A DNA stretch of 61,563 nt from Deltaproteobacteria bacterium (GTDB lineage Bacteria; Desulfobacterota; GWC2-55-46; DRQE01). The stretch spans positions 1-61,563 of the forward strand of contig WGEY01000069.1 in assembly GCA_015492495.1 (NCBI GenBank), in the 5' to 3' direction. Shown piece after piece: positions 1 through 24,157 of this stretch. How positions within the stretch are numbered: position 1 is the stretch's first letter; every line of letters begins with the position of its first letter. The notes beneath the pieces are model-generated. The model saw only the letters and a list, made by a program, of their open reading frames with translations, did not search any database and was not told the DNA's origin. A program made the translations under genes and the position numbers.

Positions 1-784
1 CCTTAAATAGAAGGGATTGAGACTCTATGGGTTGTTATTTTCTTCATTTCTCCCGAAGGAACGAAGACCTTAAATAGAAGGGATTGAGACTTGTATCCAT
101 TTTCTCCCTCCCTTTATTTTGTGAAGGAACGAAGACCTTAAATAGAAGGGATTGAGACGTGGTTACCACAACCACCACCCAGATCCTCCGCCCGAAGGAA
201 CGAAGACCTTAAATAGAAGGGATTGAGACCTATATACCCCTTTTGTCAGTCTTTCTTTCTTCATGAAGGAACGAAGACCTTAAATAGAAGGGATTGAGAC
301 ATGTAATCCTCTATGTCCTTTCCCTGTCCCTTGAAGGAACGAAGACCTTAAATAGAAGGGATTGAGACGCCGTTTTCCTTGACCTCTGCGCTCATATCGG
401 AAGGAACGAAGACCTTAAATAGAAGGGATTGAGACCAATTTTCTATGGAGGTATTCGATGCCCTCCTGGAAGGAACGAAGACCTTAAATAGAAGGGATTG
501 AGACGGTGAGATCATGGAGCGTCTTCAAAAAGAGGTCGAGGAAGGAACGAAGACCTTAAATAGAAGGGATTGAGACAAAAAAACTTTGGATTCTGGAGAA
601 AAGAAAAAGAAGGAACGAAGACCTTAAATAGAAGGGATTGAGACCGTTTTCATATCTCAAACAAGGCCGGCGTAACCTGAAGGAACGAAGACCTTAAATA
701 GAAGGGATTGAGACCTGCCATTCGGATCCGAGTTTTACGATTTTTTCTGAAGGAACGAAGACCTTAAATAGAAGGGATTGAGAC
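1..784 (+). CRISPR. CRISPR array: 12 identical 36-nt repeats (first truncated by window edge), 11 spacers of 31-36 nt
   Basis: Repeat GAAGGAACGAAGACCTTAAATAGAAGGGATTGAGAC at 1-23 (partial), 55, 123, 194, 265, 333, 400, 469, 541, 609, 679, 749. The 3' end ATTGAGAC resembles the ATTGAAAC-type 8-nt Cas6 handle and the degenerate copy lies downstream, so transcription is probably on + with the leader outside the window. Confidence 0.98.
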
Positions 785-2333: not shown

Positions 2334-2612
2334 ATGAGGCGACTTTACCTCGTGGCATACGACATAACCGACAACAAGAGGCTCAACCGCGTGAGGGACT
2401 TCCTCAAGGGGTACTCGACCGGAGGGCAGAAGTCCGTCTACGAGTGTTTTCTGTCGGAAGGCGAGCTGAGAAGGGTTGTCACAGGGCTCGATGACATCAT
2501 AGAGCCCGAGGAGGACAGGGTCCACATCTTCGCGCTGGACGGCCGGAGCAGGGTCCACACGCTCGGGGTCGCGCTCCAGCCGAAGGACCCGTCCTTCTTC
2601 TACTTCGAGTGA
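2334..2612 (+). CDS. cas2: CRISPR-associated endonuclease Cas2
   Basis: 92 aa with YLVAYDI, KRLNRV, QKSVYEC and EDRVHIF motifs. Confidence 0.95.
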   Translation: MRRLYLVAYDITDNKRLNRVRDFLKGYSTGGQKSVYECFLSEGELRRVVTGLDDIIEPEEDRVHIFALDGRSRVHTLGVALQPKDPSFFYFE

Positions 2613-2685
2613 GCACGAAGCGGCGCGGCTTTCAGCGGTCTGGAAGCGGACGGTCCGGAGCATGCCGAGTAAAGGGGCTGATACC

Positions 2686-3654
2686 ATGGGAACACTCTAC
2701 ATAGACAGAAGGGACATAGAGGTGAGGATGGACGGAAACGCCCTGGCCTTCTACGCAAACGGGAGAAGGGAGGGGCTTGTACCGATCGTACAGCTCAAGA
2801 GGGTGGTCATATGCGGCAGGGCGCTTATCGAATCGTCGGTGCTCGGAAGGCTCGCCGAAGAGAACGTAAGCGTCGTCTTCCTCTCGGGCAAGCACCAGCG
2901 GTTCAGGGGGATGCTCCACGGACGGCTCCACAATAACGGCCTTCTCAGGCTCAAGCAGTACGAGGCGTCGCTTTCACCGCTTGCACTGTCGTGGGCACGG
3001 GATCTGGTCAGAAGAAAGGTCGAAGGCCACAAGACATTGCTCGAGGATGCGCTCGAGGCCAGGCCCGACAGGAGGCGTGAGCTCTTCAGGGGCGTATCGT
3101 CGCTGGCGTCGGTCCTTTCGACCATTGAAGAAGACCGCGAATCAGACAGGACACGCCTCAGGGGACTCGAAGGCGCGGCGGCGGCGGCCTACTTCCAGGC
3201 TTACTGCCCGCTTTTCGCGCCGTCACTCGGCTTCAGGGCGAGGCGGAGAAGGCCGCCCACGGACCCGGTGAACGCCCTTCTTTCGCTGACCTATACGCTC
3301 GTCCACGCCGAGGCCGTAAGGGAGTTGGAGCTCGCAGGCATGGACCCGACGATCGGCTTTTACCACGAATTCGACTACGGCCGGGAATCGCTCGCCTGCG
3401 ACCTCGTCGAGGTCCTGAGACCCCTCTGCGACCGCTGGATCTGGTCGCTCATGCGAGACAGGGTCTTTACGGCGCGCAGCTTCACCACCGGCGGCGAGCG
3501 CCCGGGCTGCTACCTCAAGAAGGACGGCAGAAAGACGTTCTACGCGCTCTACGAGGAGTGGGCGGTCTCCGCAAGGGGTGTGCTGTCAAACGAGGTAAGA
3601 TCGCTCGTGCGCATGGTAATGGGAGACGAATACAATGAGGACCTTGTACCTTAA
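2686..3654 (+). CDS. cas1: CRISPR-associated endonuclease Cas1 (catalytic motifs intact)
   Basis: LRGLEGAAAAAYF, RRRPPTDPVNALLS, GFYH and ACDLVE motifs; ATG 2686 follows AAGGGG (ORF open from 2662). Confidence 0.96.
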   Translation: MGTLYIDRRDIEVRMDGNALAFYANGRREGLVPIVQLKRVVICGRALIESSVLGRLAEENVSVVFLSGKHQRFRGMLHGRLHNNGLLRLKQYEASLSPLALSWARDLVRRKVEGHKTLLEDALEARPDRRRELFRGVSSLASVLSTIEEDRESDRTRLRGLEGAAAAAYFQAYCPLFAPSLGFRARRRRPPTDPVNALLSLTYTLVHAEAVRELELAGMDPTIGFYHEFDYGRESLACDLVEVLRPLCDRWIWSLMRDRVFTARSFTTGGERPGCYLKKDGRKTFYALYEEWAVSARGVLSNEVRSLVRMVMGDEYNEDLVP

Positions 3655-4456
3655 CGGAGACAGGCGGTACACGGTGCGCAGGGACGGCCCTTCACTGTGG
3701 ATCGGCGAGCAAGGGAGGGCCGGAAGGAGGGTGCCGGTGCGCCTGGTAAGCCGGGTGATCGTAACGGGCCGCGTGACCATGGAGAGCGACGTGATACCGT
3801 TCCTCGCCCGTAGCGGCGTGCCGGTCTCGTTCCTGAGCAGCAGGGGAGACTTCGTAACCACGGCGCTTCCGCTCGAGCAGCCGCTCACCTCGCTGCAGGA
3901 GAGGGTCCAGCGGCTGTATCATGTAAGGGACGGCGTTGCGCGGGTCAGAGAGCGGCTTTCGGCCAGGAGGCAAGGCTTCATGGTAGAGCTTCTGAGGAAG
4001 TTTCTGCCCCACAAGGTGGCGTTCATAGGCGAAAAGGGGCTGGGAGAGAATGCCTACCTCCGGCTCGTCGAGACGATCATCCCGGGGGATGCGGGGGACC
4101 ATCCGCGGGCCGTGAGAGGCATACTCGACGGCCTTTTTCACGAGCTCGTACTCAAGGAGGTCGTCGACACAGAGCTCGACCCGCATGTGGGTTTCGTGCA
4201 TCGCCACGAAAATTTTGCCTTCGTGAAGGATCTGTGTTACGCTCTTGAGGCTGAAAGGGACAGGCAGCTCATCCTCTTCTTCAGGAGGCCGGGGTGGACC
4301 AGGTTCACGAGCCGAAGGGCCGGCCATGCCGGCGTGAACGCCGAAGGCATGAAGGACATAGCCGTGCGTTTCGAAAACCTCAGGGAGGATGTCTCGGCGA
4401 AGACGGACATGCTGCTCGACGACTTCTTCGGTGTGTTGAGGGAGATGGGGACATGA
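3635..4456 (+). CDS. Degenerate Cas1 paralogue (probably catalytically inactive)
   Basis: N-terminus parallels the upstream Cas1 (TLY...DG..L...VP...V++.G...L....V.V.FLS) and DPHVGFVH...KDL is retained, but the EG and RPPxDPxN motifs are missing and DLVE becomes DLCY. Confidence 0.8.
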   Translation: MRTLYLNGDRRYTVRRDGPSLWIGEQGRAGRRVPVRLVSRVIVTGRVTMESDVIPFLARSGVPVSFLSSRGDFVTTALPLEQPLTSLQERVQRLYHVRDGVARVRERLSARRQGFMVELLRKFLPHKVAFIGEKGLGENAYLRLVETIIPGDAGDHPRAVRGILDGLFHELVLKEVVDTELDPHVGFVHRHENFAFVKDLCYALEAERDRQLILFFRRPGWTRFTSRRAGHAGVNAEGMKDIAVRFENLREDVSAKTDMLLDDFFGVLREMGT

Positions 4457-4743
4457 AGTCGGCCTATCTCGTCTGCTACGACATATCAAGCCCCCGCAGG
4501 CTCGGCAGGGTCTTCAGGCTCATGAAGGGCACCGGCGTGCACCTGCAGTACTCCGTCTTCCTCTGCTCGCTTACGTGGCCGAAGCTTACGCTGCTCAAGG
4601 CAATGCTCGACGACATAATAAACCCGGGACGGGACGACGTGAGGATATACCCCCTGCCATCGGGGTGCAAGGCACGCGTACTCGGCAGGTGGGCGCGTAT
4701 CCCAGAGGGCATCGACATCTTCTTCGAAAAGGGGCTCCCCTGA
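4453..4743 (+). CDS. cas2: Second Cas2
   Basis: MKSAYLVCYDISSPRRL, LQYSVF and DDVRIY motifs; ATGA overlap with the cas1' stop. Confidence 0.93.
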   Translation: MKSAYLVCYDISSPRRLGRVFRLMKGTGVHLQYSVFLCSLTWPKLTLLKAMLDDIINPGRDDVRIYPLPSGCKARVLGRWARIPEGIDIFFEKGLP

Positions 4744-4775
4744 ACATTACGCGCGCAGGCGTGCCGAGGAAACCC

Positions 4776-5723
4776 GTGTTTGAAGGCCTTTACTTCTCAA
4801 AGTTTTCCTTTCACCTTGAGGCAAGGGACACCATAATACTGCCACCGTACAAGGGCTCTACCTTCCGCGGGGGGTTCGGGCACGCCTTCAAGCGAATCGT
4901 ATGCAGCGCGAGGCGCAGGTCATGCGACGAGTGCCTGCTCAGGAAAAGGTGCATCTACATCTATGTCTTCGACACGCCTCCACCCGAAGGCTCCGAGGTG
5001 CTGCGTAAATACACAAACGTTCCGCACCCTTTCGTGATAGAGCCGCCGCTCGACCCCGGGAGGATATACGCACCCGGTGAGCCGCTGGTCTTCAGCCTCG
5101 TCCTCGTAGGCAGGGCGACCGAGTACCTCCCCTACTTCATTTACACCTTCGAGGAGCTGGGCGATATCGGCATAGGCAAGGGCAGGGGCAGGTACCGGCT
5201 CACGAAGGTTGTGCAGAACGGATGCGGCGGGGAAACCGCGGTCTACTCGGCCTCGGAGAAGGCCCTTTCGGCCGACCGTCGCACATTGACGCCAGCGGAC
5301 CTGCCGACGGATCACGGTGAAAACACCACGCTCACACTACGCTTTCTCACCCCGGCGCGCATAATTTCACGCGGCAGCCTCGTGGTCGACCTCGAGTTCC
5401 ATCACCTCGTCAGAAGCCTGCTCAGGAGGGTATCGTCCCTCACCTACTTCCACTGCTCGAGCAGGCTCGAACTCGACTTCAGGGGGATGATAGAGTCGGC
5501 AGCCGCGGTAACGACGGTGGAGCGACGGCTCAGGTGGTACGACTGGGAGAGGTACTCGGCCAGGCAGGCGACGAGGATGAAGATGGGGGGCGTGGTGGGC
5601 GGCGTCCGTTTCCGCGGCAAGCTGCACGACTTCATGCCGCTTGTAAGGATCGGAGAGTTCCTGCACGTCGGCAAGGGGACGAGCTTCGGGCTCGGAAGGT
5701 ACATGGTGGAAAACGGTGGATAG
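4776..5723 (+). CDS. cas6: Cas6 pre-crRNA processing RAMP endoribonuclease (Cys-cluster type)
   Basis: GTG after GAGGA; YKGSTFRGGFG, C-x5-CxxC-x5-C cluster, PHPFVI and C-terminal glycine loop GKGTSFGLG. Confidence 0.93.
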   Translation: MFEGLYFSKFSFHLEARDTIILPPYKGSTFRGGFGHAFKRIVCSARRRSCDECLLRKRCIYIYVFDTPPPEGSEVLRKYTNVPHPFVIEPPLDPGRIYAPGEPLVFSLVLVGRATEYLPYFIYTFEELGDIGIGKGRGRYRLTKVVQNGCGGETAVYSASEKALSADRRTLTPADLPTDHGENTTLTLRFLTPARIISRGSLVVDLEFHHLVRSLLRRVSSLTYFHCSSRLELDFRGMIESAAAVTTVERRLRWYDWERYSARQATRMKMGGVVGGVRFRGKLHDFMPLVRIGEFLHVGKGTSFGLGRYMVENGG

Positions 5724-22747: not shown

Positions 22748-24157
22748 ATGGAGATGATCGACAGGATGGAAAGACTCATTGACTCGCATGCACACCTCGA
22801 TGACCCGCGGTTCGACACAGACCGCCGGGAGGTCATAGCAAGGGCCAAGGAGGCCGGGGTCAAGGCCATAATAACGGTCGGCTGCTGGGACGGAGAGAGG
22901 GGCTTCGACGGTACACTCTCCGTTGCGGCCTCGGATGAGTGTGTCTTCGCCGCGGCAGGTGTTCACCCCCATGACGCAAAGGATGTCTCCGGGACGGAGC
23001 CCTTTGATCTCTTGCGGCGCCTGGCTGCCGAGGGGAGGCTCGTGGCAATAGGAGAGACGGGGCTCGACTACCATTACACCCACTCGCCCAGGGATGTGCA
23101 GAGGGATGTGTTCATACGGCACATAAGGCTTGCCAGGGAGGTCGGCCTGCCGCTCATCGTGCATTCGCGCGAGGCGGATCAAGAGACCATCGAGATCCTC
23201 AGGGGCGAGGGCGCGGAGGAGGCCGGAGGGGTCATACACTGCTTCTCCGGCGGTGAGAAGATGGCGCGCGAGGCCCTCGAGATGGGCCTTTACCTCTCGT
23301 TCACAGGGGTCGTGACCTTCCCGAAGGCCGAAGGCGTGCGCGCGGTCCTTAAAGGGGTGCCCACGGAGAGGATACTCGTCGAGACCGACTGCCCCTACCT
23401 TGCGCCTGTGCCGCACAGGGGCAGACGCTGCGAGCCTGCCCATGTCGTCGAGACCGCCCGGAGGATAGCCGAGCTAAAGGGGCTCAGCCTCGATGACATA
23501 GCGAGGATAACGACGCTCAATGCAGAGACCATCTTCGGCCTCGCCGAAGATACGGAGCCAAGGGCCAGGATAGCGTACGTCATAAGGAACTCGCTCTACC
23601 TCAACATAACCAACAGGTGCACGAACTACTGCGCCTTCTGCGCGAAGTTCAGGGACTATACGGTCAAGGGGCACTACCTGAAGCTCGAGAGGGAGCCGGA
23701 CTTCGCCGAGGTCCTCAAGGCCGTCGGCCCGGAGCCCGAAAGGTACGACGAGGTCGTCTTCTGCGGCTTCGGCGAGCCGCTCATAAGGCTCGACCTCGTC
23801 AAGAAGGTGGGCATGCACCTGAAGAGGAGGGGCTGCAGGATAAGGATCGACACCGACGGGCTCGCGAACCTGGTGCACGGAAGAAACGTGCTGCCGGAGC
23901 TGATGTTCGTCGACTGCATATCGGTGAGCCTCAACGCCCCGGACTCCGAGACCTACCAGAAGCTCTGCAAGACACCCTTCGGCGACAGGGCGTATCCGGC
24001 GATCCTCTGGTTTCTGAGGGAGGCGAAGAAGTACATACCGAAGGTCGTGGCCTCTGTGGTGGCCGTGCCTGGCCTTGACGTGGAGGCCGCAAGGAAGGTC
24101 GCGGAAGAAGAGATCGGGGTGGCCTTCAGGGTCAGGGAGTACAACGAGGTTGGTTAA
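22748..24157 (+). CDS. TatD DNase fused to TatD-associated radical SAM domain
   Basis: IDSHAH, GETGLDY, H.R, HCF and ETD.P motifs, then YLNITNRCTNYCAFC and FCGFGEP. Confidence 0.92.
   Translation: MEMIDRMERLIDSHAHLDDPRFDTDRREVIARAKEAGVKAIITVGCWDGERGFDGTLSVAASDECVFAAAGVHPHDAKDVSGTEPFDLLRRLAAEGRLVAIGETGLDYHYTHSPRDVQRDVFIRHIRLAREVGLPLIVHSREADQETIEILRGEGAEEAGGVIHCFSGGEKMAREALEMGLYLSFTGVVTFPKAEGVRAVLKGVPTERILVETDCPYLAPVPHRGRRCEPAHVVETARRIAELKGLSLDDIARITTLNAETIFGLAEDTEPRARIAYVIRNSLYLNITNRCTNYCAFCAKFRDYTVKGHYLKLEREPDFAEVLKAVGPEPERYDEVVFCGFGEPLIRLDLVKKVGMHLKRRGCRIRIDTDGLANLVHGRNVLPELMFVDCISVSLNAPDSETYQKLCKTPFGDRAYPAILWFLREAKKYIPKVVASVVAVPGLDVEAARKVAEEEIGVAFRVREYNEVG

Follow-up and report, generated by a model that had tools for sequence, protein, structure and literature searches.

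The contig WGEY01000069.1 of a Deltaproteobacteria bacterium (assembly GCA_015492495.1) carries a CRISPR adaptation module in which two distinct Cas2 genes flank two Cas1 genes, an intact cas1 and a shorter paralogue, cas1'. The window analyzed here is the entire contig, 61,563 nucleotides (nt) in length, and the assembly comprises 2.26 megabases in 112 contigs. The best explanation of the five genes listed below is that they form one operon for spacer acquisition and CRISPR RNA (crRNA) processing in a type III CRISPR system. Within it, Cas1' might take a structural, non-catalytic part in a Cas1-Cas2 integrase of heteromeric make-up, a reading that alignment and conservation lead us to hold with about as much belief as doubt.

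2334-2612, + strand: cas2A, 92 amino acids (aa), the upstream Cas2 type, signature YSTGGQKSVYEC and DRVHIF
2662-3654, + strand: cas1, 330 aa, intact, covering the whole Pfam profile
3635-4456, + strand: cas1', 273 aa, predicted full Cas1 fold, catalytic set incomplete
4453-4743, + strand: cas2B, 96 aa, Cas2 of the downstream type with the signature YLVCYDI, QYSVF, and DDVRIYPLP
4761..5723, + strand: cas6; its open reading frame (ORF) is listed from 4575, with the GTG at 4761 the likelier start

Both Cas2 proteins belong to the Cas2 family, matching Pfam PF09827 at expectation values (E) of 8e-19 and 7e-18 (68 and 65 bits, where the cut-off is 23.8), and a YD(I) motif with its N-terminal Asp is conserved in the Cas2A and Cas2B clades. 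Cas1 matches PF01867 over 283 of 283 profile positions (E 1.7e-73), and its residues E170, H235, D247, and E250 are invariant across 15 module Cas1 proteins. Alignment to its best solved match, a type I-C Cas1 (8d3p/8d3l; E 3e-36), shows the active-site Glu retained; by positions counted by hand, E170 is the counterpart of E166, and E166A serves as the active-site mutant in the mutant descriptions of the type I-C report (bioRxiv 10.1101/2022.05.30.494039). Cas6 matches PF10040 (E 2.5e-20) and the Cas6 model of PADLOC (E 1e-113); for its gene, the sequence makes the GTG at 4761 more likely as the start than position 4575.

The junctions around cas1' are tight. The cas1 stop codon occupies 3652-3654 and the cas1' ATG lies at 3635, giving an overlap of 20 nt, and the cas1' stop and the cas2B start share the ATGA at 4453-4456; both were read directly in the sequence. 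A first-pass annotation of the same DNA, made from the letters alone, had reported these two overlaps and had described two distinct Cas2 genes flanking an intact Cas1 and a 273-aa full-ORF Cas1 paralogue, a description with which gene calls and Pfam matches agree.

Fold and active site of Cas1'

Sequence profiles recognize just the N-terminal third of Cas1'. A BLASTP alignment of Cas1 with Cas1' is limited to the first 71 residues (42% identity), and the match to PF01867 spans only profile positions 9-88 of 283 (E 2.2e-14; 53.7 bits against a cut-off of 22.3). Against NCBIfam TIGR00287 the score of 52.3 bits falls under the cut-off of 71.7. Structural modeling points to homology along both domains. 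An AlphaFold model computed with 80 relatives has a predicted local distance difference test score (pLDDT) of 95.4 and a predicted template-modeling score (pTM) of 0.91, and the best solved matches found with Foldseek are Cas1 proteins and a casposase, at template-modeling (TM) scores of 0.7-0.8 over both domains. The top match is the Thermotoga maritima Cas1 (4xtk; TM 0.79-0.81, about 300 columns). As modeled, Cas1' has the two-domain Cas1 fold, with an N-terminal β domain and a C-terminal helical domain.

The active site was located by a profile-profile alignment of 15 partner Cas1 proteins with 80 Cas1' proteins (probability 99.5%, 254 columns). H235 and D247 of Cas1 align with H189 and D199 of the window Cas1', and E170 and E250 align with K134 and Y202. 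Two of the four active-site residues are thus missing, the acidic ones replaced by K134 and Y202. About 25 residues after position 140 have also been removed, and the Arg-rich GFRARRRRPP stretch (the RRPPxDPxN loop) is deleted. The alignment bears out the motif reading of the first-pass annotation, in which GFxH and DL were kept and EG, RPPxDPxN, and the glutamate of DLxE were lost.

Of the 80 Cas1' proteins, 6 have Glu at the position equivalent to E170, and 9 have Asp or Glu at that of E250; His stands at the H235 position in 44, and Asp at the D247 position in 79. The catalytic residues of Escherichia coli Cas1 are E141, H208, D218, and D221 in the numbering of PMC4046053, and Cas1' lacks the complete set of their equivalents. 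Its sequence suggests that Cas1' is a structural homologue of Cas1 that is catalytically inactive.

Conservation and cataloguing of the module

Gene order was compared in 38 distinct loci. These comprise the window, 14 from 13 further genomes in the same phylum, 20 from a species-level genome collection (after removal of 3 duplicates of the phylum set), and 3 metagenome contigs. The cas1' gene of one of them, L013, was detected by hidden Markov model and blastp only. The conservation of the four-gene order, a check proposed in the first-pass annotation, holds throughout for three of the genes: all 37 loci that can be assessed have cas1 upstream of cas1', and all 38 have cas2B downstream of it. 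The fourth, cas2A, was found in 29 loci and is missing from 5; the other 4 could not be scored for it. Coupling of the genes is similarly widespread, with cas1 and cas1' overlapping in 29 of 33 measured loci and a gap of ≤13 nt between cas1' and cas2B in 32 of 33, the start sites in these measurements being estimates.

Phylogenies separate the components cleanly. The Cas2 proteins fall into an upstream clade (26 rows) and a downstream clade (33 rows), with support of 100/99 and with signature motifs that differ between the two. Cas1' proteins form one group (25 rows, 100/99) and module Cas1 proteins another (22 rows, 96/98), with mirrored subclades. A long branch separates these two groups. 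The five loci without cas2A (L046, L049, L051, L052, and L058) retain cas1-cas1'-cas2B-cas6 and constitute one Nitrospira subclade of the Cas2B tree, so a single loss of cas2A suffices to explain them. In this subclade the active Cas1 has Cas2B alone in its locus; in L051, a scan of eight ORFs upstream of cas1 gave no Pfam match. Individual loci show further variation. Genome G352 carries the four-gene module twice (L026 and L027), each time on a short contig, with 71-89% protein identity, and in L024 (415-1295, minus strand) the module is followed by a cas6 broken into pieces of 109 and 156 aa, which may reflect a frameshift or an assembly error.

The Cas1' family is large. A word-index search yielded 22 relatives of 258-290 aa, and an exhaustive search yielded 194 representative clusters at E ≤0.001. 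When 46 distant representatives were scanned, 45 matched only within the first 160 of the 283 Pfam Cas1 positions and 1 was an ordinary Cas1. In the window's phylum, 14 of the 401 genomes sampled encode Cas1', a count obtained from 16 matches by removal of two genomes (G252 and G327) whose proteins were rejected as Cas1' because they are ordinary Cas1 proteins matched through the N-terminal domain. Cas1' is also encoded in 42 of 401 sampled Nitrospirota genomes. In all matches of both samples, cas1' is an open frame without stops. Separately, in one 327-aa protein (P0143) from the exhaustive search, the N-terminal domain of Cas1 (Pfam positions 10-83) is joined to a VWA domain of the CoxE-like type, an unexpected employment of the Cas1 β domain outside an integrase.

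Substitution patterns also indicate constraint. The ratio of non-synonymous to synonymous substitution rates (dN/dS) is 0.11-0.19 for cas1', 0.14-0.24 for cas1, 0.04-0.08 for cas2A, and 0.10-0.12 for cas2B, as estimated from 6 pairs of one clade in which synonymous divergence for cas1 and cas1' (0.8-1.6) is near saturation. Near-identical copies of the module are present in contigs from four other hydrothermal-vent metagenome runs; no RNA run is among the 6 listed as holders, all of which are DNA. Their synonymous/non-synonymous differences number 4/2 in cas1', 14/5 in cas1, 2/0 in cas2B, 5/2 in cas6, and 0/1 in cas2A, counts that are small and to which some short contigs possibly from other strains contribute. 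Insertions and deletions in these runs fall only between cas2A and cas1, with none in cas1'. Taken together, these data support cas1' as a conserved family under purifying selection rather than a decaying pseudogene. The first-pass annotation had argued as much from the overlaps and had named neutral evolution of cas1', or its absence from relatives, among the grounds for abandoning its proposal; neither was found, with conserved order, open frames, and a dN/dS for cas1' close to that of cas1.

A gene of this kind has been catalogued before. The PADLOC-DB model PDLC01185, named Cas1, carries the description 'Cas1, diverged variant, second in the loci', and the window locus corresponds to that definition, since its canonical cas1 is accompanied by another gene resembling cas1. 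The window Cas1' matches the model weakly, through its N-terminal part (E 5.5e-6, 24.3 bits). In whole-genome scans the model matches the Cas1' of two loci with the same four-gene order (2.7e-16 in G287 and 6.3e-10 in G188), and it matches 9 of 14 scanned Cas1' proteins at 1e-14 to 1e-24 as the sole family at E ≤1e-12. All 9 are the distant, shorter relatives in the 14-protein set. Relatives of one distant member that matches the model show the order cas2A-cas1-cas1'-cas2B in 3 of 3 metagenome loci, and the single tree group formed by Cas1' (100/99) includes the PDLC01185-matching relatives with the same order (1e-10 to 1e-24). The description of the model fits the window layout exactly; its weak match means that the window subfamily is poorly covered, and the model supplies a label, not a function. 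The second Cas1 has thus already been noticed by curators, and the layout is catalogued, widespread, and not new as an annotation. We presume that the label originates in the Makarova/Koonin profile tables.

The first-pass annotation had left open whether the layout had been characterized. As an entry in a database it has been, in PDLC01185. No description or functional study of a cas operon with an additional, inactive Cas1 was found in the literature searched, although the supplementary profile tables of the 2015 classification, outside that search, may hold the original note. The sole literature trace is a contig listed as cas2-cas1-cas1-RT-... in the contig listing of PMC11742911 (RT, reverse transcriptase).

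Operon surroundings, arrays, and type III context

Upstream of the operon lie a CRISPR array, an ORF, and candidate control elements.

1..784, + strand: CRISPR array whose 36-nt repeat (ending ATTGAGAC) occurs in 12 copies, with copy 1 truncated at the contig start
24-748: span of the 11 array spacers, each 31-36 nt
1049-1927: 292-aa ORF with a signal-like stretch at its N terminus, located after the array trailer and before cas2A
2270-2296, + strand: perfect palindrome of 27 nt directly 5' of the promoter match, candidate operator
2299-2327, + strand: sigma-70-like promoter match (10/12), ending 7 nt 5' of the cas2A ATG, candidate operon promoter

A degenerate repeat copy at about 965-1000 indicates that the trailer end of the array points toward the cas genes. 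The promoter assignment is a consensus match only, and the palindrome could be an operator for some regulator. The 292-aa ORF has no match in Pfam, NCBIfam, or PADLOC and no BLAST match among 37 related-locus sequences searched. The rest of the contig is housekeeping, including FBP aldolase/phosphatase, MetG, Era, Der, FtsH, and GyrA. One 469-aa ORF at 22748-24157 joins a TatD-family nuclease to a 'TatD-associated radical SAM' domain (NCBIfam TIGR00010 and TIGR04038).

The assignment to type III comes from the neighbors of related modules. Cas10, Csm2, and RAMPs are found in 4 of 6 loci scanned, with Cas10 in 3 of the 4, and Cmr5 is present in L038. Other neighbors in longer loci include Card1, Csx1, Csm6, an NE0113-family CARF protein, Csx3, and a CARF-adenosine deaminase. 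Arrays adjoining the module have related repeats of 36-37 nt and number up to 83 repeats. In the window genome itself, the array runs off the contig end and a type III effector is either unassembled or absent in the 112-contig assembly. Another contig of this genome (C12; locus L035, 6-1127, minus strand) has an NE0113-family CARF gene at its end, 46% identical to the NE0113 gene that lies between cas6 and cas10 in L020, and the effector may lie in an assembly gap. The genome also contains a complete, separate type I-C system on contig C5 (L034, 3501-10924), with cas3, cas5, cas8c/csd1, cas7, cas4, cas1, and cas2. A WYL/WCX regulator gene precedes it, and its Cas1 is 34% identical to the window Cas1.

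Spacers of the adjoining arrays are strand-biased. Across 332 spacers from 13 loci, the purine fraction on the crRNA-sense strand is <0.45 in 186 and >0.55 in 39; the window array has 9 pyrimidine-rich and 2 purine-rich spacers among its 11. Coding strands are purine-rich in the window genome, and if those of the targets are assumed to be likewise, most crRNAs would have the antisense orientation to transcripts that type III requires. Such a bias could be the product of selection alone. The idea that spacers are drawn from translation starts, suggested by several window spacers with a ribosome-binding site and ATG on the reverse strand, was rejected when the pattern failed over the 332. The motif occurs on the reverse strand of 23 spacers versus 7.4 in shuffles, which by a rough estimate does not exceed what real gene starts would yield.

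Possible assemblies of the four proteins

In solved integrases, one subunit of each Cas1 dimer is active and the other is inactive, forming DNA-contacting walls, according to the structural accounts in PMC12259127 and bioRxiv 10.1101/2022.05.30.494039. In an ordinary Cas1(4)-Cas2(2) complex, one and the same Cas1 protein occupies both the active and the inactive positions. In the proposed heteromeric integrase, Cas1 would be the catalytic subunit and would supply the two catalytic sites. Cas1', an inert paralogue with the Cas1 fold, would assemble with Cas1 and Cas2B, and with Cas2A where present, and would occupy the non-catalytic Cas1 positions; Cas2B, together with Cas2A where present, would form the bridge. 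The first-pass annotation had proposed Cas1/Cas1' heterodimers bridged by a Cas2/Cas2' heterodimer, or else Cas1'-Cas2' as a regulator of acquisition; its interpretation is supported in part, for function and selection of cas1', with the heteromer still a proposal. The heteromeric integrase is favored by strict co-occurrence of the genes, their co-inheritance and tight coupling, selection on a fold without its chemistry, the presence of working arrays (up to 83 repeats) next to the module, and the subclade in which a single Cas2 stands beside both Cas1 genes. The retention of cas1-cas1'-cas2B after loss of cas2A further favors one joint complex over two independent ones. That all four proteins share one complex, and the place of Cas1' within it, are inferred.

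Several observations weigh against a heteromeric integrase. To our knowledge, the integrases studied to date all use Cas1 homodimers. Among the four proteins Cas1' evolves fastest, at about twice the rate of Cas1 (mean corrected distance 1.65 versus 0.82). In an analysis of rate covariation, the strongest partial correlation of Cas1' is with Cas2B (0.46, the highest found) and not with Cas1 (0.33), whereas that between Cas2A and Cas2B is the lowest (0.12); this analysis is exploratory, with no significance test and non-independent locus pairs, and it is given little weight. No homologue of 479-2000 aa that fuses Cas1 to Cas1' or Cas1' to Cas2 was found, which is weak evidence. In the complete genome with locus L022 (6001-9296), a Cad1-like fusion of CARF with adenosine deaminase lies between cas1 and cas1', together with an NE0113 CARF gene, indicating that the module can split into cas2A-cas1 and cas1'-cas2B. 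Finally, in the assembly that contains the window no Cas10 exceeds the cut-off and RAMP matches are absent, leaving function in this genome unproven.

The main rival, which we regard as possible if rather improbable, is that Cas1' and Cas2B form a non-catalytic complex of their own beside a Cas1-Cas2A integrase. Such a complex could capture and hand over prespacers, bind the leader or repeat, or act as a brake on acquisition. The split in L022 lies between cas1 and cas1', and cas1' and cas2B stand in the canonical cas1-cas2 order and are translationally coupled. The highest of the exploratory rate correlations joins their two products, and the net charge of Cas1' stays positive (median +9 in 80 sequences). 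However, two separate complexes would leave the active Cas1 of the cas2A-less subclade without a Cas2 of its own in the locus, and cas1' is always accompanied by an upstream cas1, in each of the 37 assessable loci.

A stronger form of the heteromeric proposal is more tentative, and we consider it improbable. In this form the heteromer would be obligate, with the catalytic and structural Cas1 positions split over two paralogues and bridged by two Cas2 proteins, and its asymmetry would set spacer orientation in type III systems, which target RNA and lack a protospacer adjacent motif (PAM). An asymmetry that sets orientation would fit the strand bias of the neighboring arrays (186 versus 39 of 332 spacers).

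Polarity could also arise in an integrase made of a Cas1 dimer on Cas2A and a dead Cas1' dimer on Cas2B, joined by a Cas2A-Cas2B heterodimer. This complex would have one catalytic lobe and be intrinsically polar. It would mirror the gene layout cas2A-cas1/cas1'-cas2B, and the two Cas2 clades are distinct and ancient. There is also a type III precedent that needs two Cas2 proteins and for which a heterodimer was proposed, in the portion of PMC6821258 that deals with the two Cas2 genes. The spacer strand bias would agree with such polarity, although selection alone could cause it. Full integration, however, consists of two transesterifications at two repeat ends, so that one lobe must act twice; cas2A is dispensable in one subclade, and the exploratory Cas2A-Cas2B correlation is the lowest of those calculated. 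We consider this arrangement unlikely.

It is very unlikely that Cas1' is still an enzyme that employs other residues, such as D199 and E247. These are near-invariant (79 of 80) and invariant (80 of 80), respectively, but E247 aligns with E298 of Cas1, which is conserved yet outside the catalytic set. Moreover, the His is found in just 44 of 80 proteins, the Arg-rich loop beside the site is deleted, and a more distant branch of the Cas1' family is without even the DPH..H motif. The reading of the locus as a duplicated adaptation module in decay, with cas1' functionless, could appeal to the profile matches confined to the N-terminal third and to the rapid evolution of Cas1', but it is already contradicted by the conservation data, namely open frames in both genome samples, low dN/dS, 194 representative clusters, and a confident, compact structural model.

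Comparison with known systems shows what sets the module apart. It shares the Cas1 and Cas2 families and the Cas1 fold with canonical Cas1(4)-Cas2(2) integrases, including those of E. coli type I-E and type I-C Cas4-Cas1-Cas2. In those, one gene product fills both Cas1 roles, whereas the window has a shorter, apparently non-catalytic paralogue and a second Cas2 type; unlike the type I-C module, it is without Cas4 and is linked to type III. Two different Cas2 proteins in a type III-linked adaptation operon are also a feature of the Vibrio vulnificus type III-D RT-Cas1-Cas2A-Cas2B module. There, as stated where deletions are described in PMC6821258, loss of either Cas2 abolished acquisition and a Cas2A/Cas2B heterodimer was proposed. 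As that account presents it, the V. vulnificus module has a single RT-fused Cas1 and no dead Cas1, in contrast to the window module with two Cas1 genes and no RT, and the two Cas2 pairs are likened here in number only. Cas1-solo group 1 resembles Cas1' in its incomplete active site. In the group descriptions of Krupovic et al. 2014 (PMC4046053), it occurs in Methanomicrobiales only and is not CRISPR-linked, whereas Cas1' is bacterial here and always inside a cas operon; the identification of Cas1' with this group was therefore rejected.

The window locus thus adds one more example of a kind that has been catalogued but for which the literature searched gave no study. Type III adaptation is the least understood part of CRISPR immunity, including how spacers are oriented for RNA targeting in the absence of a PAM. 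With the active and inactive Cas1 roles putatively in two genes, each could be separately mutated, deleted, or swapped, which is impossible in homo-oligomeric integrases. The module is common enough, in the Nitrospirota (42 of 401 genomes) and in the window's phylum (14 of 401), to allow the choice of a tractable source. A polar complex, if true, could also interest groups that employ integrases as molecular recorders.

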